From the IMG/VR virus record IMGVR_UViG_3300017963_005353, positions 1 through 64,000 of that record: 64,000 bases of DNA. One strand, 5' to 3'. The notes under the pieces are model-generated. The model had not been told where the DNA came from. It was given only the letters and a program-made list of their open reading frames with translations, and did not search any database. The DNA is from a virus. The position numbers and the translations under genes were made by a program. Below, piece by piece: positions 6,369 through 54,704 of the stretch (within the stretch, counting starts at the first letter, position 1; every line of letters starts with the position of its first letter).

Positions 6369-6380
6369 GGAGAAAGAAAC

Positions 6381-11381: not shown

Positions 11382-11384
11382 GGT

Positions 11385-13454: not shown

Positions 13455-13460
13455 GCTTAA

Positions 13461-13489
13461 ATTGTACCACATTCGATATATTCTGTCAA
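13461..13489 (-). promoter_or_regulatory. Sigma70 promoter, antisense to the late operon
   Basis: TTGACA-17 nt-TACAAT with an extended -10 TG. Confidence 0.75.
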
Positions 13490-13498
13490 GGAAAACAC

Positions 13499-30891: not shown

Positions 30892-30944
30892 AACGGAACC
30901 GCCCTGCGGCCCTGACAACAAACGACACTAAAGGAGGTGCAACT

Positions 30945-37769: not shown

Positions 37770-37935
37770 TCGTTAGCTCCTGTGGGAATGGCGAGCGGAT
37801 AATGGTTCCTTCGGTCGGGTCGTAACGCACGACCTCCAGCCCCGTCTTACCGGTGGCCACGTGTATGGCGAAAATAGGTTCGTCGTCGGTCAGCACCAGA
37901 TTAAGACCATCTCGAATTTGCTTCCAGGTCATCAT
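37738..37935 (-). CDS. Small hypothetical protein
   Basis: Coupled to the methyltransferase stop; fills the gap. Confidence 0.4.
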   Translation of the reverse strand: MMTWKQIRDGLNLVLTDDEPIFAIHVATGKTGLEVVRYDPTEGTIIRSPFPQELTNDQHRDSDPQ

Positions 37936-38843: not shown

Positions 38844-39718
38844 CTGTCTAGCCCTCCTGCCAGCACTTTGATAACCCGGTTTCTAAACTCCCTGTCAATG
38901 CCCCCGGGGTCATTTGCGGGGTTGAACGGGTCGAACCACGGGTGCACCAGGAGCAAGTCAAGCATAAATTCATCCTCCGGTTGCTCTCCCCTGGCTTGCT
39001 CCACAAGCTGTCCAAAGGGCGTTGTGACTGACTGCCCGTCAGCACACAGCCCGCGCAAGAGCTTGTCGGGTGTGTACACCGCCCCCCTGTAGATCACCAG
39101 GTCGCCCCGTTCCTCTTTGCGGGGAGGCACCTGCCCGCCCGGAAAGAGAAAGGCCCGCTGCCTGGGATCCTCACCTTTTTTGATGACAAAGGGTCGTTCA
39201 AAGGGCTCGACGTGCATGGCGATGCTGCTGTAGCGTTTTTCAATGATGCGCCACAGGAGCTCGTCAAAGTTCAATGGGTCGCCTGTCTCGATGTCAATGT
39301 AGTAATAGCCCAAGTAAACGTCCAGCAAACGAAACCGGTTTGGGGCTTCGGGTATGGGAACGAATATGACCGTTGTGGCATGGGTGAGGCTGGTCTGGTG
39401 GTGGCCGTAGACGTATTCACAGGCCGGCAGGCCAATGCCCCGCAAGCAGGCGGCGAATATCCGGGCTGCCCCTCCACACCACGTACCCGCCTGCTCCCCA
39501 ATGACCCGTTGAAACATGGTGGCGGCCGGCAGGTCGGGCGGCATGTTCGTGTGAGTGCCGGGGTAGGTCATGCGCCGGCCGAGCCAATGCCACAGGCAAA
39601 GGGCTGTTTCCCAGGTATCGAAGGGATCGGTCATGCACAATTCTTGCAGCCCAGGGACAACAGCCTTGAGATAGTGCCCCAAGGTGTGTTCGTCTGTGAT
39701 TTGCTCCAGGCTGATCAC
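38840..39718 (-). CDS. Transglutaminase/NAT-like (papain-fold) protein
   Basis: GTWCGG...HATT...LLD arrangement consistent with a Cys-His-Asp triad. Confidence 0.5.
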   Translation of the reverse strand: MISLEQITDEHTLGHYLKAVVPGLQELCMTDPFDTWETALCLWHWLGRRMTYPGTHTNMPPDLPAATMFQRVIGEQAGTWCGGAARIFAACLRGIGLPACEYVYGHHQTSLTHATTVIFVPIPEAPNRFRLLDVYLGYYYIDIETGDPLNFDELLWRIIEKRYSSIAMHVEPFERPFVIKKGEDPRQRAFLFPGGQVPPRKEERGDLVIYRGAVYTPDKLLRGLCADGQSVTTPFGQLVEQARGEQPEDEFMLDLLLVHPWFDPFNPANDPGGIDREFRNRVIKVLAGGLDR

Positions 39719-40719
39719 TGGTTTCTCCTGTGCAAGCTCTGGGCGCGTTCAATGGCCCGTTCCCACTCTGCCATGACAGGCTCCCGGCCAAACCGTTCCC
39801 GGGCCAGGGCTTTTGTCCTGTAGCTCATCCTGACGGCCCGATCGTAATCGTCGATCAGCCCTTGCGCTCTCGCCGTCAACTCTTGCAGGTTGCGGCAAAC
39901 ATAGCCCGTCACGCCGTCTCGAATGTGCGCCCTGTAGTCGTGTTGCTTCATGCCAACCACCAGGCAAGGAAGGCCGACCGCCAGGGCCTCGGTGAACGAT
40001 AGCGACAGGTGCCGGCTCGATGCGTCACAGTCCAGGTTGACGTAGCAACGAAATGCCGCCATTTCCCCGGCGAGCTCCAGGGACGAGCGGTAGCGGTCCG
40101 CCGCGTCGAGGTGGAATCCCGGCACGCTCTCGGTCAGTGCCAGCCAGTCGCGCAACCGTGGCTGGCTCTCCGGCCCGCCCCGCCATTTGTACGCACCGGC
40201 CAGCACGAAAAGAGCCCGGTTGTCCTGCCCCGTCCATTCCTGCTCGAAATACCAATCCCCAGGATACCAGGGCACAAAATAGGCATCGCGCACGCCGGCG
40301 GCGGTCCACTGGTCGGCAGCGACAATGGAATCGGTTGCCACGACTGACCGGGCGAACATCTCCCTGTCCTGGGGCTCCAGGGGGATTGTGTGGGGCGTGT
40401 ACCATGAAACCTTGATAATGCGGGGCACATCAAGCTCCCAGGACATTTCCCTCCAGGGGGGTTCCCATCCCCGCGCTTCCCAGGTGTCGATGACCACATC
40501 GTATTGCTGCCAATTTGCCCCATCCAGGGGTATCCAGGTGGTCTCGAAGCCAAGCTCTGGCCCCTCTTTCAGCAGCCGGGCTTTGTTGCTCTCCAGCTTG
40601 CTATGTGCCCCTCCATCCCCATGGGGAGCGGGAATCACGATCACGTCAAGCTCCCCAAACAGGGCGGCGGTTTTCTCGATGACCGAGACGTGAGCAGGGT
40701 ACATCATGGCAACTTTCAT
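39715..40719 (-). CDS. GT-B (GT4-like) glycosyltransferase
   Basis: CYVN...LSFTEALAVGLP, DGVTGY and ARERFG. Confidence 0.7.
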   Translation of the reverse strand: MKVAMMYPAHVSVIEKTAALFGELDVIVIPAPHGDGGAHSKLESNKARLLKEGPELGFETTWIPLDGANWQQYDVVIDTWEARGWEPPWREMSWELDVPRIIKVSWYTPHTIPLEPQDREMFARSVVATDSIVAADQWTAAGVRDAYFVPWYPGDWYFEQEWTGQDNRALFVLAGAYKWRGGPESQPRLRDWLALTESVPGFHLDAADRYRSSLELAGEMAAFRCYVNLDCDASSRHLSLSFTEALAVGLPCLVVGMKQHDYRAHIRDGVTGYVCRNLQELTARAQGLIDDYDRAVRMSYRTKALARERFGREPVMAEWERAIERAQSLHRRNQ

Positions 40720-40728
40720 AGCGATCTC

Positions 40729-40980
40729 CTAACGCACTGGCGACCCGGTTTGTGGGTTGTCGTTGCTCTCTGTTACCCAAAGCACAGACCACCACGCCCA
40801 AACGATCCATGCCAGCCCGATGCTGACAAAAAGGGCAACGCCGGCCGCTCCCTCTTTCCAGTTTTCCAGGGCGTTCATACCCAGGGCAACCAGGACAAAA
40901 AAGAGGACTGTCGCCGAGCTTGCAATGGTGACTTTTACGGGCAGCACCCGTTTGTTCCAAAATGCTTTTATTTTATCCAT
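40729..40980 (-). CDS. Small two-TM membrane protein
   Basis: Two hydrophobic segments; fills the operon. Confidence 0.55.
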   Translation of the reverse strand: MDKIKAFWNKRVLPVKVTIASSATVLFFVLVALGMNALENWKEGAAGVALFVSIGLAWIVWAWWSVLWVTESNDNPQTGSPVR

Positions 40981-41773
40981 CGTACCATCCATATCCCAGG
41001 CGCAGCATGATGTCCTTGAAGTGGGTCAAAAAGATGCGCCTGTGCCATTCGCTCCAACCATCCCACCTCTTTGCAGGGAGGGGATCGTACAGCCAGCCGT
41101 GTTCATCCCACAAGCCATGTGGGGGCAGGTTCAAGGTCTCTTTTTCAACGCTGACGGGGTTTGGGAGCATGGTCTCGCGCACGATCCGAACGTGCTCCAG
41201 GTTCCAGGATACTTGTGTAAGGTGTTCCATGAGCCTCTGGAAATATCGCCCGTCAGTGCCGATGGACTGGTCAAGCGTCTCAATCTTGACCAGGGGCCAA
41301 TCCTGGGGACGAACGTCCATCAGCCAGCGGTGCAACCGGGCAAGTTCAACCGTGTAACCTTCAAAGTGGTCCTCTTCGGTTTTCATGGGTCGGCCCAGGT
41401 GTTTTTCAACCGTTGCGACGTGTTGTGTCAGGTCGGGCGTGTTGGGGCCAGGCTGAACCAGGCTGTTCCAATACTGCACGGTCTTTTTCCCCACCACCTC
41501 GATGGGATTACGGACGAACCGGGCCACGCGCCCATGCTCGGCACAGTATTTGACCACGCCCCCCGATTTGATAAACCCCAGGCTCTTGAACGCGCCTTGC
41601 TTGCGCTCGCGCTCGATGTAGTCCACAAGCGATTCACCCGGTTTTAGTTCGGGCGAATACTTGTCGTTTGTCGGAGCTTCTGCCCAGGCCCACACGTCAG
41701 GGTGTGCCCGGCAGATGGACATGAACCAAAAACCCCCACAGTGGCCCAGGTTGACTTGCGCCCAGACTTTCAT
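40973..41773 (-). CDS. Sulfotransferase-fold (P-loop) protein
   Basis: LGHCGGFWF.....HPDV resembles the 5'-PSB loop; FVRNP resembles the 3'-PB; VKIETL. Confidence 0.45.
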   Translation of the reverse strand: MKVWAQVNLGHCGGFWFMSICRAHPDVWAWAEAPTNDKYSPELKPGESLVDYIERERKQGAFKSLGFIKSGGVVKYCAEHGRVARFVRNPIEVVGKKTVQYWNSLVQPGPNTPDLTQHVATVEKHLGRPMKTEEDHFEGYTVELARLHRWLMDVRPQDWPLVKIETLDQSIGTDGRYFQRLMEHLTQVSWNLEHVRIVRETMLPNPVSVEKETLNLPPHGLWDEHGWLYDPLPAKRWDGWSEWHRRIFLTHFKDIMLRLGYGWYDG

Positions 41774-41955
41774 CGGCAGCTCCCCAGGATGGCGACAAGG
41801 CTTTGCAGCATGCTCGAATCTGACAGCATAATAAGGGTAAGAAAGGCAAGAAGAAAATCGCACAGCATGGTGATGGCGACCAGGGCACCAATTGGAAGAT
41901 CGTCGCTGCTCAGTTTGGTGATAGACAAAAATAAACCTGCACAGATGGTCAACAC
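41770..41955 (-). CDS. Small membrane protein
   Basis: 61 aa, hydrophobic, coupled to both neighbours. Confidence 0.45.
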   Translation of the reverse strand: MLTICAGLFLSITKLSSDDLPIGALVAITMLCDFLLAFLTLIMLSDSSMLQSLVAILGSCR

Positions 41956-43646
41956 GGCTCTCCCTCCTTCTCGAGCATGAACCAGCGCCCAAAGGCCAGG
42001 GTATCAATGCCCGACTGCTCAAATGTCTGCATGGCGTCGTAAGGGCTGCTGACGATGGGCTCCCCTCTCAGGTTAAACGACGTGTTCATAAGTAGGGGCA
42101 CGTGGGTCAGGCGGTGAAACTCAGTGAGGATTTCAAACAAAAAGGGATTCTCGGTTTCGCTGACCGTTTGAATACGGCTCATCCCGTTGACGTGTACGAC
42201 GGCCGGCACATGGTCGGGGTTGTATGCTTGATGGGTGAGCATCATGTGGGCAGCGGATGGGCTGTTGAATGTCTCGAACCAGTATTTGGCATGTGTGTCC
42301 ATCACAACCGGTGCAAACGGGCGGAAAGCCTCTCGAAACTTGACCTTGGCGTTCATGCGGTCTTTCATGCGGGCGTCTCGGGGGTCGGCCAGGATGGTGC
42401 GGTTGCCCAACGCCCGGTTGCCCCATTCGTCTCTGCCCTGGTAGAGAGCCACGATCTTACCCTGGGCGAGTTGTCGTGCAATTTCTTGGGCATTTGATTC
42501 CTGTTGCGGGAACCAAGAACAATCTGCCAGGGTTTGTTCAATTATCCGGTCAGGATAGTCGATCCCCAGGTAGGGCGTGAAGGGATACCGACGCACGTTT
42601 GTTGGTGCACAATCGGCCAGATCGCCTATGATCGCCGCTCCCATGGCACAACCGGCGTCCCCTGCGGCCGGCTGTATCCACAGGGTCAGGTCGGGATTGC
42701 AGCGCAGTATCATGGCGTTCAACACGCAATTGAGCGTCACGCCACCGGCCATGCACAGGTTTCGGTGGTTGCCCTGGCCCAGGAACAGTTGCACCATCCT
42801 GAGCACCGTCGTTTCCAGCGCATATTGGACCGCTGCCGCCAGGTCCATGTGTTCCTGCTCGATGGGACCGCCCGGTTTTCGTGGGGGCACGCCCAACAGC
42901 TTTTCCAGGGCGGGCGTGTGGTGACAATGGGGATTACACCAGTCGAAATACTTCTGGTCAAGCCCAAACGACCCATCGGCGTTGAGCAAGAGGATATTTT
43001 CCAGCAAGCGGTCAGCAAGCGGAAACGCATCGCCCATGGCCGCCAGGCCCATGACCTTGAACTCCCCGTTGTTGGACCGGAAGCCCAGGTAGTTCGTCAT
43101 GACCGAGTAGAGCAACCCTAGCGAGTGGGGAAAACTGATGGACTGGATCCGGTGCAAGTTGTTCCCTTCACCATTCCATACCGTCAACGTGTCCCACTCC
43201 CCAACGCCATCGATCACGAGCACCAACGCCCGCTCAAAGGGAGACGTGAAAAACGTGGCAGCAGCGTGGCTCCTGTGGTGCTGCGCGTTGTAAATCGGTC
43301 CATTGTAACCGAGCAACCGCATGTGTGTCTCAATGCCCCGCTTGTGGTGATAGTGATAGGGTATCACATTGCGCCAATAATTCCAGGTGCCCGGCCAGCC
43401 ATCGCGGGCCTGGGCGACAACACGCTCAAACTTAAAGTCGGGATCTTCGTGGAAGAAAACCTGGTCCACGTCGTCCCATTTCCAGCCACAATGCAGGAGC
43501 GCAGCTTGCAAGGCCAGTTGGGGGAACCTGGCGTCGTGCTTGACACGGCTCAATCGCTCCTCCTGTATGGCAAACCGTATCTCGCCATTCTCTATCGCCA
43601 CGACCGCCGAGTCGTGGTAAAAGCACGACACGCCAATGGTTCTCAT
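41949..43646 (-). CDS. O-carbamoyltransferase (NodU/CmcH/TobZ family)
   Basis: YHDSA, EERLSRVKH, HHRSHAA, DGVGE, GEFKVMGLA, AGGVTLN, PAAGDAG, RALGNRTILADP, KFREAFRPFAP and NTSFN. Confidence 0.93.
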   Translation of the reverse strand: MRTIGVSCFYHDSAVVAIENGEIRFAIQEERLSRVKHDARFPQLALQAALLHCGWKWDDVDQVFFHEDPDFKFERVVAQARDGWPGTWNYWRNVIPYHYHHKRGIETHMRLLGYNGPIYNAQHHRSHAAATFFTSPFERALVLVIDGVGEWDTLTVWNGEGNNLHRIQSISFPHSLGLLYSVMTNYLGFRSNNGEFKVMGLAAMGDAFPLADRLLENILLLNADGSFGLDQKYFDWCNPHCHHTPALEKLLGVPPRKPGGPIEQEHMDLAAAVQYALETTVLRMVQLFLGQGNHRNLCMAGGVTLNCVLNAMILRCNPDLTLWIQPAAGDAGCAMGAAIIGDLADCAPTNVRRYPFTPYLGIDYPDRIIEQTLADCSWFPQQESNAQEIARQLAQGKIVALYQGRDEWGNRALGNRTILADPRDARMKDRMNAKVKFREAFRPFAPVVMDTHAKYWFETFNSPSAAHMMLTHQAYNPDHVPAVVHVNGMSRIQTVSETENPFLFEILTEFHRLTHVPLLMNTSFNLRGEPIVSSPYDAMQTFEQSGIDTLAFGRWFMLEKEGEPC

Positions 43647-43828: not shown

Positions 43829-44662
43829 CTAACAGTCCAGTTCATGTTTCAACGACCTCCACAAAATTTCAGCCATCCACGGATAGGCATCAGGCTCCGG
43901 GTGCCCCATGTCCTGGAAATAGGGCACACCCTGGGCGAGTGTGTTGACCGCCATTCCCGCCCACATGTTGCACAGGGGCACATCTAACGCCTCTGCTGCC
44001 CGGCGGCAAACTTCGTTGCGCTTCAATATCTTGTCCAGGTGTTTGGCGGCTGTAGCGTGAAAATCATCGTTGCCCCAGAACCGGCGCAAACAGCCCTCCA
44101 GGTGGGCGTTGCCGGGCCGTTCCCGGGAGCCACCGGCTGAGGGGAGAATATAAGAGGTCCAGTCCTCCTTGATCGTAAGCTCATTGAGCAGGCTAGGCAT
44201 GGTCACAAACATGGGGCCGGGCAGGTCGGCAACCCGTTTCCACAAGCCGAGGTCTCGATCCCAACCTTGCCAACCGTGCCAGCCGGGCAGGGTGACGTTG
44301 TGGTCTATGGCGATCTCGGCGTTTCTCCGCTCCATCAGATCCACAAGCTCGTGAAACCGTATGCCCTCCACGCCCCCGTTGAAAAACTGGATGGACGGAC
44401 AAAACTTCTCGAGCATGTCTACCCAGGTGCGCCGACCCTGTCCAAATACCACCGAGTCGCCCCACACCACAGCCAGGGGGCGGCTATAGTCTCGATCCTG
44501 GAGCGAGCGGAAACCCAGGTCGTTCATGCGAAAAAGAGTGACAGCATCCTTGTAGCAGACGCGCACGTTCCGGGCGGTCTCCATTGCCACAGGGTCCCAA
44601 TAGTGGCTTTTGGTGAATCGCCCGTCCGTTTCGCCTTTCCACATGCAGACTTTATCAGCCAT
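43829..44662 (-). CDS. SGNH/GDSL hydrolase-family protein
   Basis: NDLGFR, VWGDSVVFG, NGGVEG and QDMGHP (DxxH). Confidence 0.75.
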   Translation of the reverse strand: MADKVCMWKGETDGRFTKSHYWDPVAMETARNVRVCYKDAVTLFRMNDLGFRSLQDRDYSRPLAVVWGDSVVFGQGRRTWVDMLEKFCPSIQFFNGGVEGIRFHELVDLMERRNAEIAIDHNVTLPGWHGWQGWDRDLGLWKRVADLPGPMFVTMPSLLNELTIKEDWTSYILPSAGGSRERPGNAHLEGCLRRFWGNDDFHATAAKHLDKILKRNEVCRRAAEALDVPLCNMWAGMAVNTLAQGVPYFQDMGHPEPDAYPWMAEILWRSLKHELDC

Positions 44663-45395
44663 GCTTGTGCCCTTCCTTGAGCCACCATTCGGCTGCGCTT
44701 GCATCGAGCAGGTTGTGAATATCCCGGCCGGCAAGCCAGGTGCGAACGATAGGCTTGCACTTTTCGCCCATCCACCACCAGGGGCTCACCGTGTCGTCCT
44801 TATGCCCCGCGCACCTGGCACGAAAGGCCCACAACCCTTGGTCGAAATAGTAGGCCAGGGGATAACTCTGACGGTTTGTAGATTGTTCCGGCGATGCTCC
44901 CGCAAGGTGCTCCCGCCCAGGGTAAACAGTCAAAAGCCCGTTCTCACCTATGGCGAGCGACCGCAAGGGGTGATCGTCCTGTGCCTGCCACACACTCATC
45001 ACGCTGTCCAATGTGGGATCATCCTCCAGCATCTCCAGGGCGCGATCCACGAGCGGGGCGTCAATCATCACCCCGTTGCCGATCATGATGACCACGTTTT
45101 CCAGGGCGTTGTGCTGTTCCCAAACCTTTCTCACGGCAAAGGCAATGGCGTCTCCGTGGTTTGCATCCGGGGCGGTGAGCACTTCTGGCTCCCAGATGGT
45201 TTGTGCGCCATATTCACCGGCCAGGGCCGCGATGATATTGGAATCGGTGAGGCAAAACACACCTTCCACTCGATCAGCCGTTGCGGCAGCGGCTAGAGCA
45301 TAGATCACGCAGGGAAGGCCGGCGATGGGCATGATGTTCTTCCGGGGGATGCTCTGGCTCTGGCCTTTTGCAGTGATGATCGCCGCGTTTTTCAT
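44655..45395 (-). CDS. NeuA/KdsB-family cytidylyltransferase
   Basis: AIITAKGQSQSIPRKNI, TDS..I and DIH. Confidence 0.8.
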   Translation of the reverse strand: MKNAAIITAKGQSQSIPRKNIMPIAGLPCVIYALAAAATADRVEGVFCLTDSNIIAALAGEYGAQTIWEPEVLTAPDANHGDAIAFAVRKVWEQHNALENVVIMIGNGVMIDAPLVDRALEMLEDDPTLDSVMSVWQAQDDHPLRSLAIGENGLLTVYPGREHLAGASPEQSTNRQSYPLAYYFDQGLWAFRARCAGHKDDTVSPWWWMGEKCKPIVRTWLAGRDIHNLLDASAAEWWLKEGHKHG

Positions 45396-46372
45396 GCTGC
45401 CCCCTTTTGCAAACTGAAAGCCAGTTGCATGGCTCGTTTGGCATCTACAATGGACGCCATAGCAACGGGTTTTCCAGATTCAACCGCTTGACGAAACAGG
45501 TTCACTTCCCTGTGGAACGAATTGTTTGTCTCAAAAGTTTTTGTTTCAATGTCGGCGCTGGCGTCTCTCGGAATGGCAACGTAAGTGGCAGGGCTGTACC
45601 GCCCGGAGGGGGAGCAAAACCCGTTCAACTGAACGTTGCCGTTTGACAGGCCAATCTCGATACCATAGGACGGTTGGCTTGAGGCAGAAAAGTGGACAGA
45701 GGCCGATATGCCGGTTTTTGATCTCAGTAATGCGAATACGTTGTCGTCTACGGGGCAAGGGAAATGGTGGGTATCTACCAGGGAGGTCAAGCCCTGCAAG
45801 GTCTCGAACTCCTCACCGGTGAACCAGTAGAGGAGGTCCAGCACATGTATGCCCAGGTCGAGCAAAACACCGCCCCCTGACAGGAGCGGGATCTGTCGCC
45901 ATAGGCCGGTGTGCCCGCTCGAGGTGTATTGCGCCCTGATCCATAGAGGTGTTCCATACCGGTGCTCCTGGATCGCCCGTTTCGCCAAAAGGACATGCTC
46001 ATGCCAGCGGTGGTTAAAGCCGAACATGAGCACCAGGCCTGGATGAGACCCCAGGGTATCATCCATCAGTCTCAAGTCTGACAAGTTGCGACCTGGGGGC
46101 TTTTCGCAAAATACATGCTTGCCCTGGTCCAAGGCCCAGGCCACAACCGAGGCTTGCACGTTGTTGAACGCACAGGCAAACACGGCGTCAATGTCTCGGC
46201 GGGCGCACAGATCACGGTAGTCTGTGTGAAACTGTGAAGGAGCAATCATATGAAATCTCCCCAACTGCCTGGGGTCAATGTCGCAGACGGCGCCAATCTC
46301 AATGCCTACCTGCTGGCAGCATTGGGCGCGGATTTGTCCCATTTTGCCCAGGCCCACAATACCGACCCTCAC
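45392..46372 (-). CDS. Gfo/Idh/MocA oxidoreductase
   Basis: VGIVGLGKMG, KHVFCEKP, GFNHR and SGGGVLLDLGIH. Confidence 0.9.
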   Translation of the reverse strand: MRVGIVGLGKMGQIRAQCCQQVGIEIGAVCDIDPRQLGRFHMIAPSQFHTDYRDLCARRDIDAVFACAFNNVQASVVAWALDQGKHVFCEKPPGRNLSDLRLMDDTLGSHPGLVLMFGFNHRWHEHVLLAKRAIQEHRYGTPLWIRAQYTSSGHTGLWRQIPLLSGGGVLLDLGIHVLDLLYWFTGEEFETLQGLTSLVDTHHFPCPVDDNVFALLRSKTGISASVHFSASSQPSYGIEIGLSNGNVQLNGFCSPSGRYSPATYVAIPRDASADIETKTFETNNSFHREVNLFRQAVESGKPVAMASIVDAKRAMQLAFSLQKGAA

Positions 46373-46390
46373 GGAAACCTCCTTGCCATA

Positions 46391-46419
46391 ATTATACCTG
46401 TTTGGCCGCTTTGCGTCAA
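46391..46419 (-). promoter_or_regulatory. Sigma70 promoter
   Basis: TTGACG-17 nt-TATAAT followed by an AAGGAGG RBS. Confidence 0.7.
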
Positions 46420-47504
46420 GCCCCCAGGAATTCAGCGATCTCAGTTGTGCTCAGTTCGGTTTCAAACATCTCGCCCGGCCCGTGAGTGAGGATAGCGTTG
46501 ACCACGCCCGGCTTGTTGCCCCGTTTTTTGTCCTGACCGAGAGCTTGAATCAAAGACTGGCCGGTCGGGAAGTCCACTCTAGAGCAAAACCCATGATAGA
46601 CATTCCTGGCAATCTGTGTCATTTCATGGCAGGTATCACGGCTCAGGTAGCCCTTTTCCCAGGAGATCTCACAGGCGATCTCAATGCCCCCGGCGACCGC
46701 GATGCCGTGGGGGATCTGTGGGTCAACCGCCTCGATGGCATGGCCGAATGTATGCCCCCAATTGAGCAGTCGGCGCACGCCTGTGTCTCGCTCGTCTTGC
46801 ATGATGTATTCGCGCTTGATCTGGAGCGTTGCCCTGGCAGCCTTGACAAGCTCATCGTGTGCATACTCCAGATCAGGGTCGAGCATGTTGCCCAAGGTGT
46901 CTTTGACCCATTTGTACCACTGTCCACCCTGCACCATGAAAAAGTGGAGCATCTCGCCTATCCCTGATAGTTGCTCCAGGTGGGGGAGCGTCAGGAGAAA
47001 TGAGCGGTCGATCAACACCACTTCAGGCGGCCAGATGGTGCCAATGATGTTTTTGTAGCCGCCCAGGTTGATGCTCGTTTTGCCCCCTATACAGCTATCG
47101 GCCTGGGCGAGCAAGGTCGTGGGGAAATAGACCCACTTGATGCCCCGCATATACACGCTGGCCGCAAACCCGCCCAGGTCCATAAGCGAGCCCCCACCGA
47201 CGACAAAGAGCCTGTTTTGGCGGGAGACGCCCTTTTCCAGGAACTCTGTTAGCAGGGAAACAACGTGGGTCAGGGTTTTTATCTGTCTACCCAGGCCCTC
47301 GAATGGTGGGCAGATAAAGGCTCTCTCAGCCTGTATGAGATCGTCAATCTGCTCTGAGTATCCATGGTAGATTGCGGGGTCGATCATCACCGGGTCCCCA
47401 GGGGCGATCAGGCTTTCCAGTGCATCGAGCCAATTGCCGGTTTCTTGTATGGTGTAGTCTTGCACCTGGCTTGAGATTGCCAGCTTGAACTCATTGTCGG
47501 ACAT
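46416..47504 (-). CDS. 3-dehydroquinate synthase (AroB)-family sugar phosphate cyclase
   Basis: GGG...DLGGF, PTTLLAQADSCIGGKTSIN, KN.IG, GEMLH, LLNWGHTFGHAIE and PHGIAV. Confidence 0.88.
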   Translation of the reverse strand: MSDNEFKLAISSQVQDYTIQETGNWLDALESLIAPGDPVMIDPAIYHGYSEQIDDLIQAERAFICPPFEGLGRQIKTLTHVVSLLTEFLEKGVSRQNRLFVVGGGSLMDLGGFAASVYMRGIKWVYFPTTLLAQADSCIGGKTSINLGGYKNIIGTIWPPEVVLIDRSFLLTLPHLEQLSGIGEMLHFFMVQGGQWYKWVKDTLGNMLDPDLEYAHDELVKAARATLQIKREYIMQDERDTGVRRLLNWGHTFGHAIEAVDPQIPHGIAVAGGIEIACEISWEKGYLSRDTCHEMTQIARNVYHGFCSRVDFPTGQSLIQALGQDKKRGNKPGVVNAILTHGPGEMFETELSTTEIAEFLGA

Positions 47505-48228
47505 TGTGAAACCCTCCATCTATAGTGATATTCTGTCCTGTGATGTACGTGTTCTCGTCGGAGCACAGCCAAACAACCAACCTGGCAATCTCCACTGGTT
47601 GAGCAAACCGACCAAGTGGGATCTGCAAGGCAAGTTCTCTTTGTTTCTGGGTCGTCAGGGTGCGGTCGGTGAGCTCTGTCTGAGTGAATCCAGGGCTGAC
47701 CATGTTCACCAGCACCCCATGGGGAGCCATATCAGCGGCCATGGCTCGGATCATGCCCGCCAGCCCCGCCTTGGTGGCAGCGTACACACTCCGCCCCGTC
47801 TTACCGGTCTCTGCCCAGATGGAGCCAATGTTGACAATATGCCCACCATGCCCTTGGCGTTGCATGACCCGACACGCAGCCCTGGCGATGCTGAATGGGG
47901 CAATCAGATTGACGCGCATAAGCATGTTGATCGTGTCGGTTTCGATTTTCCAGATGGGGGCATTGACGTTGGTGCCAGCGTTTTGGACCAGCACGTCTAA
48001 CCGGTCGAGAGTATGTAAAAAGCCCTCACACATTTGCAGAATGTGTTGGGCGTTGTTGAAATCACATCTCACATACCTGTCGAGCCATGCTGGACATTTG
48101 GGAAACCTGATCTTTCCGGTGCCAATAACCCGCGCTCCCCTCCCTTGGAGTTGGCTGGCGATGGCTTTACCTATACCCCTGGTCGCCCCGGTGACGATTG
48201 CCGTTTTACCGGTAAAATCCAGGCTCAT
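47491..48228 (-). CDS. Classical SDR oxidoreductase (FabG-like)
   Basis: TGATRGIG, NAG, YAATK, SPG and ITGQNITIDGG. Confidence 0.9.
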   Translation of the reverse strand: MSLDFTGKTAIVTGATRGIGKAIASQLQGRGARVIGTGKIRFPKCPAWLDRYVRCDFNNAQHILQMCEGFLHTLDRLDVLVQNAGTNVNAPIWKIETDTINMLMRVNLIAPFSIARAACRVMQRQGHGGHIVNIGSIWAETGKTGRSVYAATKAGLAGMIRAMAADMAPHGVLVNMVSPGFTQTELTDRTLTTQKQRELALQIPLGRFAQPVEIARLVVWLCSDENTYITGQNITIDGGFHNVRQ

Positions 48229-48707
48229 GGTGCCCTCGCTGATTCCAGGGCGATCTCGTTGGCCTCGGGATTGGGGAACATCATAGACAACAGACTTGCC
48301 GCATCCTCGAAAAAGGAATCGTCCTCGGCCACCTCACCGGCCATCTTTTGCACAGCCCGGCCTAGGGCAACCGCCCGGCCCAGGGCATAGCAGAACTGGC
48401 GGGGTTCGGCCTCGGCCCGATCGTGGTACGGGGCAAAGGCCAGGGAATGACGCGCCCGCTCGAACACGGCAACGCCACAGAATTTGTCGCCCTGTGGGGT
48501 CGTCAGCAGGCAATAGGTTGCCCCGCCCATAGGGGAAACGTGGGCCGGTCTGGATTCGCGATCCTCCTTGCCGTTGCGGTAGTACCGCCTCAAGAGCCAG
48601 GGGCCTTCGGCTGAAACATCACTGACCTGCCGGTAGTGGAAAAACCGCACGTCAATGCCCCGCTGTTGCAGAGCCTCCACCTCGGTGCCGACTTTCGATA
48701 CTTTCAT
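48225..48707 (-). CDS. Hypothetical phage protein
   Basis: AAGGA RBS; GGAT.C...QFC..LGR.VA..RA motif. Confidence 0.55.
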   Translation of the reverse strand: MKVSKVGTEVEALQQRGIDVRFFHYRQVSDVSAEGPWLLRRYYRNGKEDRESRPAHVSPMGGATYCLLTTPQGDKFCGVAVFERARHSLAFAPYHDRAEAEPRQFCYALGRAVALGRAVQKMAGEVAEDDSFFEDAASLLSMMFPNPEANEIALESARAP

Positions 48708-48973
48708 TATTCTGTCCTTTCTTCTTGTAGTTCGTCTCTGACAAACGGGTCGGGATGGGTGCTCATGGACTGTGGGGGATGTGATTGACCAGCGGTGAAC
48801 AACCACAGCTTTCCCCACAACAGGAACATGATCCTATCTTTCCACGAGCCTTTCCAAAGGGCAACCCGGAGTCTGCCGGTGTCGTGAACGGGTAGGGGTT
48901 GCTCTGGCGATGGCGACATGTGTTCCGGCACCATCATGGTTCGCGTGGTTCCTGAAAAATTGACCGGCTTCAT
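48707..48973 (-). CDS. Hypothetical phage protein
   Basis: MKPVNF...LPV...WK.SWKDR..FL..G..WL......HPP pattern. Confidence 0.6.
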   Translation of the reverse strand: MKPVNFSGTTRTMMVPEHMSPSPEQPLPVHDTGRLRVALWKGSWKDRIMFLLWGKLWLFTAGQSHPPQSMSTHPDPFVRDELQEERTE

Positions 48974-48986
48974 TTTCTCATCCTTA

Positions 48987-49430
48987 TCAAGGCATCAACA
49001 GGGGCGATACAAGTGAAATTGTGGTCGCTGTCGGCGTCCGGGTTGGAGGTGCTGGTGTGCTGGTCGGTGTGTATGTTGGGAGATGGGGATCGGGTTGGGT
49101 TGGATAGGGTGTGTGGGTAGGAATAAGTGTGAAGGTGGGAATGACGATGGGTGTGTGAGTATGGCGACAAGTGGGAGATGGGGCGGGCGTGTATGGGGCC
49201 TGGGTGGGCTGCGGGGTCGGTGTGCGGGGATCAAACGGGCATCGGTCGAACCAGTCCGCCTGATCCCTGTTCGTCGCCCCTGTTGATCTCTTTATCTCTT
49301 GTGTCAGTGTGGCGATAGACTTGTCATCCTCTTGGAGCGGGATGGCCGGGCTCACCACGAAAAAGGCCAGCACAGCCAGGAATACAGCAATGCACACTTT
49401 GCCTCCTCTAGGGAGCTTGTTCTGGGTCAT
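48987..49430 (-). CDS. Membrane-anchored Pro/Thr-rich protein
   Basis: N-terminal TM and a long TPTP/PT low-complexity tail ending VSPL. Confidence 0.6.
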   Translation of the reverse strand: MTQNKLPRGGKVCIAVFLAVLAFFVVSPAIPLQEDDKSIATLTQEIKRSTGATNRDQADWFDRCPFDPRTPTPQPTQAPYTPAPSPTCRHTHTPIVIPTFTLIPTHTPYPTQPDPHLPTYTPTSTPAPPTRTPTATTISLVSPLLMP

Positions 49431-49439
49431 GCTTGCACC

Positions 49440-50408
49440 TCACACTACAAACTGCCATGAGTTACCGAGCAAAGTGGGCTCTTTCCTGCCCTCCAGGATA
49501 GCCTTCACACCCTCGACGGCTTGCCTTTCCATCTCCTGGCGCGTCTCGGCCGTCCACGATCCCAGGTGCCGGGTCAGGACCACATTTGGAAAAGCGGCCA
49601 ACTGTCCCTGGTAGGGCTCTTGCTCGAACACGTCCAGCGCGGCGCCGGCGATGAGCCGTTCCTCCAGGGCCTTGACCAGAGCCTCTTCGTCCACCAGCCC
49701 ACCCCTGGCAGTGTTGACCAGGTAGGCAGTCTCTTTCATGCGTGTGAGCTCATCGCGCCCGATCCAGCCCAGGGTTTCGTCGGTCAAGGGGAGATGGAGC
49801 AGCAAAAAATCTGACCGCCCGATCAACTCATCCTTTGACACATACGTTAGGGCTGTACGCGCAGCCAGGTTTGTGTCTGGGGCCTTGTCATGTCCAAGCA
49901 GTTCGACATACCAGGGAAACAACAGCCTGGCGACCCTGGAGCCCACCTGTCCTACGCCAGCAATCCCGATGGCCTTGCCCCGAAGTAGGCTGCCAGCGAA
50001 CGAAACAGCCGGGGGCCACTCGCCACACCTGACCGCCCGGTCCGACAGGGAAATGCGCCGGGCCACGTCAACCATGAGCCCAATGGTGAGCTCTGCCACA
50101 GCAATGGCCGGGGCAGTGGGTGTGTTGAGCACCTTGATCCCCATTTGCTCACAAAGTTTCAGGTTCACGTTGTCTGTGCCGGTGCCGACCCTGGCGATGA
50201 CTTTCAGTTGATTGTTGCCACTGAGCAGGGCTTCGTTCACAGGCTCAGTGCCAGCAATGTACCCATCGCAGTCCATCAGGGCGGCCCGCAATTCGTCGGG
50301 CCGCAGCTTGTCAAAGGTGGGTTCGTCAGGATAGAGCACCTCGAAACCGTAGCTTGTCAAAAAGGCCCGGGCCTCAAGTCCGACCCGGGTGTTGATCAGG
50401 ATTCGCAT
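49440..50408 (-). CDS. D-isomer-specific 2-hydroxyacid dehydrogenase (phosphoglycerate dehydrogenase-like)
   Basis: RVGTGTDN, AVAELT, GVGQVG, HLPLT, NTARG, ALDVFEQEP and HLGS. Confidence 0.88.
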   Translation of the reverse strand: MRILINTRVGLEARAFLTSYGFEVLYPDEPTFDKLRPDELRAALMDCDGYIAGTEPVNEALLSGNNQLKVIARVGTGTDNVNLKLCEQMGIKVLNTPTAPAIAVAELTIGLMVDVARRISLSDRAVRCGEWPPAVSFAGSLLRGKAIGIAGVGQVGSRVARLLFPWYVELLGHDKAPDTNLAARTALTYVSKDELIGRSDFLLLHLPLTDETLGWIGRDELTRMKETAYLVNTARGGLVDEEALVKALEERLIAGAALDVFEQEPYQGQLAAFPNVVLTRHLGSWTAETRQEMERQAVEGVKAILEGRKEPTLLGNSWQFVV

Positions 50409-51611: not shown

Positions 51612-51640
51612 ATTATACCCTAAAACGGCTGTTTTGTCAA
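51612..51640 (-). promoter_or_regulatory. Perfect-consensus sigma70 promoter
   Basis: TTGACA-17 nt-TATAAT. Confidence 0.8.
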
Positions 51641-52149
51641 AGTGCCGGATCGTATTTGACCCATGCTTTGGAATAAGGCTGCCCAGCAAAAAGACCCGCC
51701 AGCCCCGTCATCTGTTTTAATCGCAAGACCTCTTCAGCCTCCATGCCCAATTCCTTGGCAATGTCAATATCTGTCCAGCCAAGTTTTATCAGCTTAGTAA
51801 CCAGCATTGACATCAAGTCTACGTTATGGACTCCCCGTGCCCGATTCATTTCGATGGTGGCGGCCATCCGTTCTTTCATGTCCTTATCAATAACGACAAC
51901 GGGGATCTCTTTGCATTTGAACCTGTCGCGTAGAAGCACAAACCGATGGAAGCCGTCCACAACTATATAGATATCCTGAATCTCATCATAAAAAACCGTG
52001 ATCGCGTACACAAGCCCGTTGTTTTCGATAGACCGTGCCAGGAGTTCCATTTCCGGGGTGGCAACACGGTTTGGGTTGTAATCATTGGCGATCACTTTTT
52101 CAGTCGGCACAAACTTTGGTGCCATACAGGGAAAAGAAATCTTCGTCAT
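51637..52149 (-). CDS. ibrB: IbrB-like ParB/Srx-domain protein
   Basis: ANDYNPNRVATPEMELL..SI, VVDGFHR, ATIEMNRARG.H and GW....IAKELGM..EEVLRLKQ. Confidence 0.85.
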   Translation of the reverse strand: MTKISFPCMAPKFVPTEKVIANDYNPNRVATPEMELLARSIENNGLVYAITVFYDEIQDIYIVVDGFHRFVLLRDRFKCKEIPVVVIDKDMKERMAATIEMNRARGVHNVDLMSMLVTKLIKLGWTDIDIAKELGMEAEEVLRLKQMTGLAGLFAGQPYSKAWVKYDPAL

Positions 52150-53243
52150 AGTATTTCCATCCATTTCTCTAACGGGTTCTCTTTCTTCTTGACATTTGCG
52201 ACCGGGACGTTGTTCTCCCAGTCATTGATCTGTAACTGATGTACCTGTTGTCGATATACTCTCTCGTTTTCATTTTGCCCGGCAAACCTCTTGATAAATA
52301 CCTCCCTTGTTTCTTGTGGGATTGGCAGTGTATCGAGCAGAAAATCCCGATATGCTTTCCAGGTCTCGAAGCCGTGCGGCAACTTTCGTGCAGCAAAGAC
52401 CTGAGGCGATTTCCCATACCGCGCTGCAATGTGAACCCCCTTGACGCGCCGCACGATTCTCTCATAAGTATCGGGCTCAAACTCTTGCAGCGTCGCAAGG
52501 CATTTGTAAGCCTTCTCGTGGATGAGATTGGATACCCGCATCTCCGGGATATTGAACCCCTTCACGTACATCCAGTCATAGACGGGGTTGTATCTCAATT
52601 TCTCTGTCCCAATAAACGTCCAGACATCCTCAAATGTCCAGTCATAGATTGGGTACAGTTTCATGCACTCGCCACCGGTCGTCCTGGACGACCAATTGAC
52701 ACCTGGAATGGCTGGATTGCGCGTCACTGCGCTGTACCGATTCAGGCTTTCCTCAGAACGCAACCCCACCAGACTACATGAGTTTGGCCCCCAGTTGTTA
52801 TCTACCCACTCCATGATGCGGTAGAATCTATCTACCGGCAACGGATCTTTAATGGAAATGTCCACCTTCGGATGTATCCAATCAGCGCCAGGTTCCCAAG
52901 CATAGAGCCACTCATCTTCATACGAGGTGGCGTTCGTCATCCTGCAAGGAACCTGGTACCAGCAGGGCACGATGAGTTCCTTAGCCATAATGTCCTTGAT
53001 GATCTCGATTGTGGCAGCATATTCTGCCTCCTGATCGAGGAAAAAGACGTTGATTTTCCTGCCGCGCCTGATGGCCTCACGGTGGGCCAATTCAAACAGC
53101 ACCGTGCTGTCTTTGCCGCCAGAAATGCTAACACTGATCGTTTCGAAAGTATCAAAAATCCATTCGATGCGCTCTGTGGTAGCCTCCACGACGGTTTTTT
53201 GGAGATAGAGTTTACACGCATTGGGGCTATGTCCTAGTTGCAC
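52146..53243 (-). CDS. ibrA: IbrA-like PAPS-reductase-domain (DUF3440) protein
   Basis: SISGGKDSTV, FLDQEA, VGLRSEESLNR, YPIYDW..EDVW, YNPVYD and MRVS. Confidence 0.85.
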   Translation of the reverse strand: MQLGHSPNACKLYLQKTVVEATTERIEWIFDTFETISVSISGGKDSTVLFELAHREAIRRGRKINVFFLDQEAEYAATIEIIKDIMAKELIVPCWYQVPCRMTNATSYEDEWLYAWEPGADWIHPKVDISIKDPLPVDRFYRIMEWVDNNWGPNSCSLVGLRSEESLNRYSAVTRNPAIPGVNWSSRTTGGECMKLYPIYDWTFEDVWTFIGTEKLRYNPVYDWMYVKGFNIPEMRVSNLIHEKAYKCLATLQEFEPDTYERIVRRVKGVHIAARYGKSPQVFAARKLPHGFETWKAYRDFLLDTLPIPQETREVFIKRFAGQNENERVYRQQVHQLQINDWENNVPVANVKKKENPLEKWMEIL

Positions 53244-54309
53244 GATAGAGCTCCTTTGTCAATCCATCTATTTGTCGCAACTCGTGGTCGAGTTGTTCAA
53301 ATAGATACCTATCAACTTTCATGTCGCTCCTGAAGTGGAAAACCTTGCACTTAGGGGATAACAAAGATTCAACGTCTAAGAGGAAATAGCTCTTGACGAT
53401 TGGCGATTCAAAATAGACACAGTTCTGGTATTCTATCTTGGGTATGGGCAAGCCCAACTGTCCGACTTTTGGCTTGGGCCTCGGCATGCCCTGCTGATAT
53501 GACGTGACCCTAAGCTGCTTTATCCCTGCATCGCGCAGCTTTTTTCGTAACCTCTTGGCATAAGTACCGAGGTTAGTCAAGATAAGCGTTCTGCCACGCA
53601 ATGTATTTAGAAGCTCGATAAGCCGATCCGAACGGCTATCAAACGCATGGGTCAAATCGGCAAGCCGCGTCACTATCGGCTGCGGTGTGGTATATTGAGC
53701 AAAGAGTTGCTCTTTTTTCTCCGCGTAAGCTTGACGCTCGCTGCCTGTTGATTCAACTTCAATGAGTTCCCTGTTCTGACACAGAAAGGCTGGATAGGTT
53801 ATTTGGCAAGCACGCTTCATTTTGTCGGCCACGATGTCAAAATCATGAGAAGAATGAACGGTGCCGCTGGTGTCTTGCTCATAGTAGTTTTCGCGCCAAG
53901 CGTAATAATGAGCATATCCCAGAATGGCGCGGCCCAGGTAGGCCAGTGGGACATAGAGGTATTGAATGTCCAACGTGAACGGCACGATGTCCACGATGGC
54001 CTTGTGCCCGATTTGCATTGACAGCCGCTTGAGCCGGGCGAATTTTGTTGAAGTGATCTTTGGATACCGGGACGGGTTCTCTAGAATGAGAACGCTATCT
54101 TCATTCGTGATGGAATTGATGTATAACCATTCATCGCGTTTGGAAATGTCTTCAAACGTGACGGGATGTACATGCTCAAGCTGTGGCCGCTCTGCCTCCC
54201 TGTTTTTGGGATAGACATAGATTGCCGTGCTGCCCTTGGCGCGGCGCAGAAAATCTCGGATGAATTTATCTTTTTCCTCTCTACTTTTGGAATATAGGGC
54301 GGCAATCAT
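53227..54309 (-). CDS. Degenerate (probably inactive) SF2/SNF2-like helicase
   Basis: LY.PL..L...ILGY.HY..WRENY resembles the SNF2 paralogue upstream; no Walker A or DExD motif. Confidence 0.5.
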   Translation of the reverse strand: MIAALYSKSREEKDKFIRDFLRRAKGSTAIYVYPKNREAERPQLEHVHPVTFEDISKRDEWLYINSITNEDSVLILENPSRYPKITSTKFARLKRLSMQIGHKAIVDIVPFTLDIQYLYVPLAYLGRAILGYAHYYAWRENYYEQDTSGTVHSSHDFDIVADKMKRACQITYPAFLCQNRELIEVESTGSERQAYAEKKEQLFAQYTTPQPIVTRLADLTHAFDSRSDRLIELLNTLRGRTLILTNLGTYAKRLRKKLRDAGIKQLRVTSYQQGMPRPKPKVGQLGLPIPKIEYQNCVYFESPIVKSYFLLDVESLLSPKCKVFHFRSDMKVDRYLFEQLDHELRQIDGLTKELYRATRT

Positions 54310-54704
54310 AACTCTAGCCTCATCCAATGCCATTTGCCACGGATATACAATTCTGTGAACCCACGGGCCTCATAATGTTTCACGCGGCCAGGCCTGACCG
54401 CCACCTTGAGATGCGACAGCCCAAGCGACCTTGCCAACCCGATGCGCCGCTCTATCAATTCTCTGGCGATTCCCCGCCGCCTGAATTCTGGAAAGACATA
54501 GAGGTGGCAAAGCATTTTTCTCTTTGTCTTCAAAGCAGCGAATCCAGCAACGTCGGGGCCAGATATTGCCACAATCCAATAGGTAGAATCATCGCTGGAC
54601 ATGATCCCGCCAAGCTCTGAACGAATCCCAGGATCGTAGCCATATCTACCTATATATTGCCACAAAGCATTGTCATTGTGATGCAAAGTGAGATATTTTA
54701 TCAC
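54306..54704 (-). CDS. GNAT acetyltransferase
   Basis: LYVFPEFRRRGIAREL and Y...GF. Confidence 0.85.
   Translation of the reverse strand: MIKYLTLHHNDNALWQYIGRYGYDPGIRSELGGIMSSDDSTYWIVAISGPDVAGFAALKTKRKMLCHLYVFPEFRRRGIARELIERRIGLARSLGLSHLKVAVRPGRVKHYEARGFTELYIRGKWHWMRLEL

Follow-up and report, generated by a model that had tools for sequence, protein, structure and literature searches.

A phage-borne variant of an AroB-like CMP-sugar cassette and its putative role in glycan synthesis

Five sugar enzymes in a complete phage genome

The stretch of DNA analysed here, referred to below as the window, is 64,000 nucleotides long and corresponds to bases 1-64000 of the viral record IMGVR_UViG_3300017963_005353 of IMG/VR, which measures 83,525 bp in full. 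At 44655-50408, on the minus strand, the window encodes five enzymes, namely a 2-hydroxyacid dehydrogenase (HacDH), a short-chain dehydrogenase/reductase (SDR), a protein with the fold of 3-dehydroquinate synthase (DHQS, AroB), a Gfo/Idh/MocA oxidoreductase (Gfo) and a cytidylyltransferase of the NeuA/KdsB family (CTP3), with two further open reading frames (ORFs) lying between them. A first-pass annotation made from the letters alone had proposed this set of genes, and matches to Pfam and NCBIfam, together with intact motifs, bore out all five at these positions. In the order in which they are read, the genes are as follows.

49440-50408, minus strand: D-isomer 2-hydroxyacid dehydrogenase, similar to phosphoglycerate dehydrogenase (PGDH) and 2-ketogluconate reductase, 322 aa (Pfam 2-Hacid_dh_C, 175.5 bits)
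48987-49430, minus strand: ORF of 147 aa whose translation has an N-terminal hydrophobic (transmembrane) segment and a Pro/Thr-rich tail; putatively membrane-anchored, an open candidate for membership of the pathway
48225-48818, minus strand: ORF of 197 aa from a GTG (160 aa from the ATG at 48707), with a stop that overlaps the SDR start
47491-48228, minus strand: FabG-like SDR, 245 aa (Pfam adh_short_C2, 180 bits)
46416-47519, minus strand: AroB-like DHQS-fold enzyme, TIGR04425-type, 367 aa, or 362 aa from the second ATG (DHQ_synthase, 119 bits; DHQS_C, 90 bits; both over the Pfam cut-off)
45392-46372, minus strand: Gfo/Idh/MocA oxidoreductase, inositol-2-dehydrogenase-like or aldose-oxidoreductase-like, 326 aa (Pfam GFO_IDH_MocA N- and C-terminal domains)
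44655-45395, minus strand: NeuA/KdsB-family cytidylyltransferase, 246 aa (CTP_transf_3, 32.5 bits, cut-off 22.6)

The dehydrogenase scored 232 bits on the PGDH model of NCBIfam and 219 bits on that of glyoxylate reductase, both below the respective cut-offs, and its nearest relatives in the Protein Data Bank (PDB) were PGDH (1e-55) and a probable 2-ketogluconate reductase (1e-44). The Gfo enzyme reached 104 bits on the IolG model, for which the cut-off is 355, and was closest in the PDB to myo-inositol 2-dehydrogenase (2e-25), with glucose-fructose oxidoreductase matching too. The cytidylyltransferase, nearest in the PDB to NeuA (2e-12), did not reach equivalog level either on PseF (60 bits, cut-off 205.7) or on KdsB (38 bits, cut-off 255); its N-terminal nucleotide-binding motif AIITAKGQSQSIPRKN is present. 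By eye, the catalytic motifs were intact in the cytidylyltransferase (NeuA-type AKGxSxxIPRKN), the Gfo enzyme (EKP and D..H), the SDR (S/YxxxK) and the 2-hydroxyacid dehydrogenase (R/E/H), and the SDR carries TGxxxGIG, NAG and S..YxxxK. The genes are tightly packed, with stop/start overlaps at the SDR/AroB-like and Gfo/CTP3 junctions.

Neither of the two intervening ORFs matched a family in Pfam or NCBIfam, and nothing was found for them in PHROGs. The idea that they might be diverged SIS domains was rejected, the hhalign probability being below 1%, and of 5.8 billion proteins just one was homologous to that of 48225-48818, at 64% identity. A sigma-70 consensus that is perfect at 12/12 (TTGACA-17-TATAAT) is located at 51640-51612 on the minus strand, a short way upstream of the gene for the Cas4-like exonuclease, which is the first in the transcription unit of the cassette, and an 11/12 match lies at 46419-46391 (minus strand) inside the 43-nt gap between the AroB-like and Gfo genes; the total of promoter-like sites in the region was not above that of shuffles.

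The carrier is a genuine tailed phage, as the first-pass annotation had assumed. Its genes include those for both terminase subunits, small and large, for a portal/head-morphogenesis protein and for a tape measure (20159-22624), along with those for a replication initiator, a DnaC-like protein, a helicase, the Cas4-like exonuclease and a Dam-type methylase, and the record has direct terminal repeats and an estimated completeness of 100%. The large terminase shares 42% identity with its counterparts in Salinibacter ruber phages, a match that does not fix the host. The Logan assemblies of two runs, one from sediment (2018) and one from seawater (2021), contained one circularly joined contig of 83,431 nt apiece at ~75x, and both showed 0 differences from the window over the 19.9 kb compared, either run being possibly the record's own source; identical short contigs across the cassette were found in two further sediment studies. 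Other runs contained only small parts of the stretch and were left aside for any inference of habitat. Because the circular contigs and the short contigs agree, the five-gene stretch is neither an assembly chimera nor a host flank, and its G+C content of 0.56-0.58 is near the overall value of the phage. No tRNA genes were found in the window, no integrase among the subset of phage ORFs scanned, and no match to GenBank phages in a blastn search with the cassette region.

As had been noted at the outset, the phage has neither a NeuB nor a KdsA synthase: no NeuB, HpcH aldolase, SIS_2 or DAHP_synth_1/KdsA family was found in the whole 83.5-kb genome. The remark that other shikimate genes are missing also stood, in that the phage has no gene of the 3-deoxy-D-arabino-heptulosonate 7-phosphate (DAHP) synthase family and only one of the DHQS family, the other aro genes not having been searched singly.

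Relatives of the gene set in bacteria and viruses

Homologs of the AroB-like protein were compared at 80 bacterial or archaeal loci (33-42% identity), the neighbours being identified by tblastn and neighbour clustering. In ~70 of the 76 bacterial loci the SDR and AroB-like genes share a strand, the SDR gene being directly upstream, and the phage SDR gene is placed likewise, overlapping the AroB-like start. There then followed, on the same strand, genes for Gfo, 2-hydroxyacid dehydrogenase, CTP_transf_3, a SIS_2 isomerase and an HpcH aldolase or NeuB. Gfo was present in 56 of the 80 loci and a cassette-type 2-hydroxyacid dehydrogenase, with 35-43% identity to the phage enzyme, in 46. Of the 42 loci that extended for 6 kb or more on each side, SDR was present in 40, Gfo in 34, CTP3 in 30, HacDH in 28, SIS in 22, HpcH in 13 and NeuB in 6. 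The exact make-up of the phage set, with no SIS, aldolase or NeuB, was found in 4 of the 27 loci that hold both Gfo and HacDH, and since SIS and HpcH/NeuB are absent from these full bacterial loci, neither is obligatory in the cassette. At locus L050 the order HacDH-SDR-AroB-like-Gfo-CTP3 is identical to that of the phage.

The linkage of SDR, Gfo, HacDH and CTP3 is conserved across phyla, and the loci also carry genes for GDP-mannose-dehydratase/epimerase, DegT, nucleotidyltransferase and GT2 (glycosyltransferase family 2) proteins, from which they can be recognised as glycan loci. On this comparison the five phage enzymes are best regarded as a phage-borne variant of a widespread, biochemically uncharacterised AroB-like CMP-sugar cassette. 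TIGR04425 is the best family for the phage protein and the cassette of that family shares with the phage the SDR, Gfo, HacDH, CTP_transf_3 and carbamoyltransferase neighbours; the phage differs from it in scoring below 400 on the model, in forming a deep sister branch, in having no SIS, aldolase or NeuB, and in using a CTP3 of another subgroup.

The phage CTP3 is ~50% identical to a large bacterial group annotated as 'acylneuraminate cytidylyltransferase family'. Enzymes of this phage type (40-46% identity) occur with a cassette-type HacDH and an epimerase/dehydratase in two Bacteroidota genomes; in one of them CTP3 directly adjoins HacDH (L250:9699-12224), and in the other the two are ~4.5 kb apart (L251:3336-10310). 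No SDR or Gfo gene was found in the 20 kb around these pairs, nor an AroB-like gene within 10 kb. The two pairs link HacDH and CTP3 functionally and suggest modular assembly, and this gene group may represent a sister pathway.

Among viruses, 74 IMG/VR contigs with AroB-like homologs were found, and the SDR gene adjoins in 73 of them. Two types of module could be distinguished. In 32 contigs (L082-L131, for example L094:2102-4766) the pair stands with a GT29 (sialyltransferase)-like gene, a CTP_transf_3-cupin fusion, a class-III aminotransferase and an MptE/Maf-like gene, and some of these contigs are T4-like phages of ~165 kb. The other 42 (L102-L153, for example L140:3303-8125) combine an HpcH-like aldolase, the SDR and AroB-like genes, a 575-aa thiamine-diphosphate enzyme and SDR/DegT, a composition that suggests a sugar acid with a branched or extended chain. 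Of the five large viral records tested, three had a T4-type Gp23 capsid gene. Gfo was present in 2 and HacDH in 1 of the 74 contigs, and the five-gene version in the window is of a 'bacterial' type that is unusual among viruses. In the neighbourhood search that the first-pass annotation had called for, the five genes proved not to be a one-off, given a conserved cassette at the 80 bacterial or archaeal polysaccharide loci and an SDR/AroB-like pair that recurs in viral contigs.

Among GenBank phage records the DHQS family was matched only 16 times, with identities of 29-40%. The matches include several in fragments of 2-19 kb that bear no annotation or in records of 240-580 kb that are annotated aroB or 3-dehydroquinate synthase, some with Salmonella enterica as the organism line, and we take these to be probably host DNA rather than phage cassettes. 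In the literature, the legend to Fig. 2 of Burke et al. 2021 (PMC8256090) lists 'DHQS-like' and 'CTP transferase' genes in viral contigs with C5 methyltransferase, TET and glycosyltransferase genes (C5-MT/TET/GT), without further study, and a literature search found no other mention of DHQS-like genes in viral contigs.

The DHQS-fold enzyme and the proposed chemistry

The AroB-like protein scored 245.2 bits on the aroB model (TIGR01357), so that the curated cut-off of 305 was not reached. Its best-scoring family was TIGR04425, at 292.8 bits, yet this too is below the curated cut-off, which for that model is 400. TIGR04425 is the NCBIfam entry 'AroB-related putative sugar phosphate phospholyase (cyclizing)', a hypothetical equivalog. 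Five bacterial genomes with a cassette copy (249-273 bits on aroB) each had also a separate, better-scoring AroB, at 322-387 bits in four of them, above the cut-off of 305, and at 289.5 bits in the fifth. A FastTree phylogeny was rooted on AroB and contained no sequences of the synthases for 2-epi-5-epi-valiolone (EEVS), desmethyl-4-deoxygadusol (DDGS) or 2-deoxy-scyllo-inosose (DOIS), or of aminoDHQS. In this tree AroB split from everything else with a support of 100, and the window protein formed a clade with five metagenomic relatives (P0002-P0006, 49-81% identity) with a support of 99. Because the aroB score is below the cut-off, TIGR04425 scores higher and the cassette bacteria keep a separate AroB, the DHQS-fold enzyme is in all probability not AroB. 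This agrees with the first-pass annotation, which had doubted an ordinary AroB and had proposed a phylogeny against AroB as a check; the phage enzyme falls outside the AroB clade.

The distance to EEVS, DOIS and DDGS was judged by PDB E-values and fold ranks. By sequence, the nearest PDB entries were those of DHQS (2e-40), followed by ValA/EEVS (4e-24), DOIS (5e-23) and DDGS (8e-16), and the same ranking was obtained by fold, the AlphaFold2 model (pLDDT 91.2) having DHQS structures as its top matches (TM-score 0.80-0.85). The 161 sequences aligned were those of the phage clade, 76 homologs from bacteria, 74 from viruses and 5 true AroBs. In all 161, E189, H256, H271, K147, N157, K235, R249, N253, H260 and K331/K332 were invariant, residues which we take, by Aspergillus nidulans DHQS numbering, to be the metal (E, H, H), phosphate, NAD-cycle and acid/base sites of DHQS. 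EEVS, DOIS and DDGS differ from DHQS at the carboxylate-binding positions. C143, S149, P164 and D245 are common to the phage enzyme and the cassette family and differ from AroB, C143 being partly biased by the search pattern. Thus the enzyme resembles AroB (EC 4.2.3.4; TIGR01357; PDB 1DQS, 3OKF and 5HVN) in its fold, with 26-29% identity in structural alignments, and in the residues it keeps, and is unlike AroB in its score, in these four substitutions, in its coupling to an SDR and in its location in glycan loci with no shikimate genes nearby; in bacteria, the AroB-like protein is a paralog that coexists with a true AroB.

The GEMLH motif, to which the first-pass annotation had drawn attention because AroB typically has E..K there, is indeed present in the phage enzyme (E189, H192), but it is no family signature, since about half of the cassette homologs keep the K. 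In bacterial full cassettes the position is H in 27 and K in 20, and viral type V2 has K in 40 of 42; H accompanies HacDH/SIS/HpcH contexts and K accompanies NeuB contexts. The change from K to H thus varies by lineage and does not define the family. A viral scan with the single protein gave no match, and when metagenomes were scanned with an alignment of the five closest relatives, none of the relatives retrieved exceeded 40% identity. Complex prediction for the AroB-like enzyme and the SDR gave a score of 0.00 with controls not run, and this gives no verdict on binding.

The most economical reading of the gene set is that it makes a nucleotide-activated, unusual product for a glycan, and to this extent the original proposal held. 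In the form that we favour, with a probability of about 0.6, the product of the cassette is an acidic sugar, activated with CMP and destined for a glycan. Members of the Gfo family oxidise either cyclitols or the C1 position of aldoses, and the first step could be envisaged as the oxidation at C1, by Gfo, of a host sugar phosphate, probably one of seven carbons, to give an aldonate phosphate. The AroB-like enzyme would then apply DHQS chemistry, with transient oxidation by NAD+, metal-assisted beta-elimination of the terminal phosphate and re-reduction, to yield a terminal-deoxy keto compound, whose ketone would be reduced by the coupled SDR. The 2-hydroxyacid dehydrogenase, whose nearest relatives (PGDH and 2-ketogluconate reductase) offer an analogy in that they act on phosphorylated or sugar 2-hydroxy acids, would produce the 2-keto (ulosonic) acid, although the order of these last three steps may differ. 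The cytidylyltransferase would convert the acid into its CMP derivative, and the neighbouring carbamoyltransferase, methyltransferase and transferases would decorate the sugar, by O-carbamoylation among others, and attach it. The route as a whole would be oxidative and aldolase-free. It is the two extra oxidoreductases that suggest an oxidative way to a 2-keto acid, and as the phage has no SIS, aldolase or synthase, the precursor would have to come from host metabolism.

The pathways to CMP-Kdo (KdsD/KdsA/KdsC/KdsB) and to CMP-nonulosonic acids (NeuB/NeuA; PseF, LegF) are the obvious comparison. They share with the cassette a CTP_transf_3 activating enzyme, and many bacterial cassettes have a SIS and an aldolase or NeuB-type synthase, while sialyltransferase-like and Maf-like transferases stand by the viral modules. 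The phage is unlike them in having no KdsA or NeuB, in its AroB-like and SDR enzymes and in its two extra oxidoreductases; the textbook pathways use a phosphatase.

Several points weigh against this interpretation. The steps are predicted from the genes, and a literature search found no paper that characterises the cassette biochemically. With neither SIS nor aldolase or synthase, the phage pathway may have a different beginning or end. Full-length identity between the phage CTP3 and the CTP3 linked to the cassette is no more than ~28%, and the two fall into different subgroups of CTP_transf_3. The phage AroB-like clade branches deeply, as the sister of all 150 other homologs, and with the clade below the TIGR04425 cut-off an equal function with the bacterial cassette enzymes is assumed. 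Lastly, with all the DHQS residues invariant, the simplest expectation would be a full DHQS reaction that includes cyclisation. The enol-pyranose intermediate of DHQS cyclises spontaneously, which is reportedly the outcome of work by Knowles and Bartlett.

This last point leads to the main alternative, the reading of the first-pass annotation, in which the AroB-like enzyme would run the whole DHQS reaction on a DAHP-like 2-ulosonate 7-phosphate to form a carbocycle, the SDR would reduce the ring ketone of this to a quinate-like polyhydroxy-cyclohexane carboxylic acid, and CMP would be placed on the tertiary alpha-hydroxy-acid centre, the result being a CMP-linked carbocyclic mimic of an ulosonic acid for a hydrolase-resistant glycan. 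Besides the invariant catalytic residues, AroB is nearest by profile, by PDB sequence and by fold. Together, Gfo and HacDH would be able to make a 2-keto-heptonate 7-phosphate, a compound that differs from DAHP by one additional hydroxyl, and the closest solved relatives of the Gfo enzyme are inositol dehydrogenases. An SDR coupled directly to a cyclase suits the reduction of a ring ketone, and the steps of DHQS after phosphate elimination are largely spontaneous. A nucleotide-activated cyclitol is, moreover, a known concept from the cyclase pathways of secondary metabolism. Against this, a saturated tertiary carbon beside a carboxylate, for which no oxocarbenium-like transition state is available, would on chemical grounds make a poor glycosyl donor, and the sialyltransferase-like and Maf-like transferases by the viral modules point to a genuine ulosonic acid. 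The cyclitols known in nucleotide-activated form depend on transferases of other families, and valienol has an allylic centre. The sugar phosphate cyclases themselves (EEVS ValA, 4P53; DOIS BtrC, 2D2X; DDGS, 5TPR) and the GDP-valienol route share only the superfamily with the phage enzyme: DHQS resembles it far more closely, the activating enzyme is of another family and no valienol-type kinase or phosphomutase genes are present. DHQS is closer to the phage enzyme than are EEVS, DOIS and DDGS, and the GEMLH change is not family-wide. Since such transferases adjoin the viral modules and a CMP-carbocycle would be a poor donor, we tentatively favour a non-cyclised, terminal-deoxy ulosonic acid as the product, without rating it an even bet, and consider a carbocycle rather unlikely. 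The fuller version, in which the phage would make a CMP-linked quinate-like 'carba-ulosonic acid', carbamoylate it and install it on the virion, is a longer shot still.

Neighbouring genes, the target of the glycan and implications

A CMP-activated acid requires a destination, and the remaining sugar-related genes of the window bear on it. Together with the cassette, they account for ~28 kb of the 83.5 kb by coordinates, a share that is unusual in itself.

43829-44734, minus strand: ORF with a GDS(x)nG block 'VVWGDSVVFGQG', possibly an SGNH-type esterase/acyltransferase, a weak assignment from the motif alone with no family match; likely start at an internal ATG near 44662
41949-43646, minus strand: NodU/TobZ-type O-carbamoyltransferase, 565 aa (Carbam_trans_N, 224 bits; Carbam_trans_C, 200 bits)
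40973-42022, minus strand: sulfotransferase-like lead, from ESM Atlas only, for an ORF with no family
39715-40719, minus strand: weakly GT1-like (Pfam match below cut-off)
38840-39718, minus strand: transglutaminase-like lead, from ESM Atlas only (transglutaminase-core clusters), for an ORF with no family
37935-38843, minus strand: SAM (S-adenosylmethionine) methyltransferase (Pfam), weakly similar to cassette-linked methyltransferases
36852-37769, minus strand: weakly GT2-like (Pfam match below cut-off)
36053-36886, minus strand: ORF with no assigned family, in the downstream tailoring/transfer group 36053-42022
30867-33184, plus strand: UDP-glucose/GDP-mannose dehydrogenase and NAD-dependent epimerase/dehydratase, at the end of the tail module (Pfam; PHROG 9148)
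4342-16298, plus strand: second glycan block of eight sugar genes, namely RmlD-like, DegT aminotransferase, GT2, methyltransferase, GT1_2, two GT1 and GT2 (Pfam, PHROGs)

The carbamoyltransferase, encoded two genes downstream of the cassette, is 37% identical over 600 aa (378 bits) to one that adjoins the cassette in locus L040, and a carbamoyltransferase stands by the cassette also in L009, L042, L057 and L069. We count it as a probable part of the pathway, being a recurrent accessory of the cassette. The first-pass annotation had placed the five genes upstream of glycosyltransferases; GT1-like and GT2-like genes do lie downstream, but since both matches are below the Pfam cut-offs, this part of the description has to be taken with reserve. 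If the sulfotransferase-like lead is correct, the glycan may also be sulfated.

Two observations on other genes may be recorded here. The block at 51637-56426 (minus strand) has a G+C content of 0.49-0.50 at 52-56 kb, compared with ~0.58 in its flanks, and contains genes for a ParB_N protein and a PAPS_reduct + DUF3440 protein (an IbrB/IbrA-like pair), a 368-aa ORF, a GNAT protein and an SNF2-type helicase that is apparently split across two ORFs (54701-55717 and 55791-56426). The first gene of the virion arm (408-2660) encodes 750 aa with an N-terminal ChaB domain (42 bits) and no further family match.

The glycosyltransferase genes of the second block (GT2, GT1_2, two GT1 and GT2, at 6381-15576) lie within the structural module, between the head genes and the tape measure. 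Because the eight sugar genes sit inside the structural module, the phage's own virion proteins are the favoured target, at odds that we would put a little short of even, and the second block is a candidate for the acceptor machinery of virion glycosylation. A search for [ST]G[ST] in the 12 proteins of the virion module (2699-29020) gave 28 observed sites for 10.0 expected from shuffles, compared with 7 observed and 5.1 expected in 20 enzymes, and most of the sites are in the tail proteins of 1186 aa and 822 aa. The excess is a weak indication which could reflect a glycosylation sequon or else the local Ser/Gly/Thr-rich composition of fibre proteins. Mycobacteriophage virion glycosylation, reportedly described by Freeman et al. 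in 2023, is said to involve glycosyltransferase genes next to capsid and tail genes in a siphovirus-like genome. The window's phage is similar in having such genes beside structural genes, and differs in a far larger sugar load that includes precursor synthesis.

An unlikely destination, on present evidence, is the host cell surface, where the same pathway could serve receptor masking, superinfection exclusion or the alteration of O-antigen or capsule. The bacterial homologs are found in cell-surface polysaccharide loci, the cassette is transcribed with early/middle-type replication genes from behind the perfect consensus promoter at 51640-51612, and the small Pro/Thr-rich ORF within the cassette appears to be membrane-anchored, all of which would fit such a role. 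Against it, no flippase, polymerase or lipid-carrier transferase family and no integrase were found among the ORFs scanned, which did not cover every ORF, and the eight sugar genes are embedded in the structural module.

It is considerably less probable that the phage uses the CMP-activated acid to hypermodify its DNA by glycosylation of bases, rather than for a glycan on protein or polysaccharide. The cassette stands in the minus-strand arm among genes for replication, recombination and other DNA functions, such as the SNF2 helicase, the Cas4-like exonuclease and the ParB_N/PAPS-reductase-DUF3440 pair, and 'CTP transferase' and 'DHQS-like' genes are shown in the viral C5-MT/TET/GT contigs of Burke et al. 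2021 (PMC8256090). In addition, a 2023 preprint (10.1101/2023.12.21.572611) describes a phage glycosyltransferase that places a Kdo-like acid on 5-hydroxymethylcytosine; the DHQS-like genes were not studied in either report. However, the window's phage, unlike those clusters, carries no C5-MT, TET or hydroxymethylase. No Tet_JBP, C5 DNA methyltransferase or thymidylate-synthase/hydroxymethylase family was found in the complete phage, in which the only DNA methyltransferase is Dam-like, of the D12 N6-adenine class, and there is no evident hydroxymethyl handle. A search for Tet_JBP in 49 viral records with the SDR/AroB-like pair gave no match, which carries no weight, as control genomes gave none either and most of the records are fragments.

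Finally, it is hardly credible that the phage has here an aroB of the ordinary kind, serving as an auxiliary metabolic gene that enhances aromatic synthesis in the host and lying among unrelated sugar genes, since the DHQS fold and full set of catalytic residues that speak for it are outweighed by a score under the aroB cut-off and a higher one on TIGR04425, by C143, S149, P164 and D245, which are common to the cassette family and not to AroB, by a linkage to SDR, Gfo, HacDH and CTP3 that is kept across phyla, by the separate AroB of cassette bacteria, and by GenBank phage DHQS-family matches that are only 29-40% identical and in several cases read as host DNA.

The AroB-like/SDR pair is among the commoner unexplained modules in bacterial glycan loci and is present also in uncultured phages, T4-like ones included. 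With a core of five enzymes and neither isomerase nor aldolase, the phage offers a convenient minimal set in a compact, complete and re-assembled genome. A solved product would give TIGR04425 a function, and would show whether DHQS chemistry has been recruited for the terminal deoxygenation of sugar acids or for the formation of carbasugars. It would also reveal a new sugar, possibly one that phages display on their particles, with a bearing on host recognition, stability and immune evasion. If a carbocycle on the virion proved to be true, it would represent a hydrolase-resistant viral glycan made by way of a repurposed shikimate enzyme, and the same chemistry would be widespread in bacterial surface polysaccharides.

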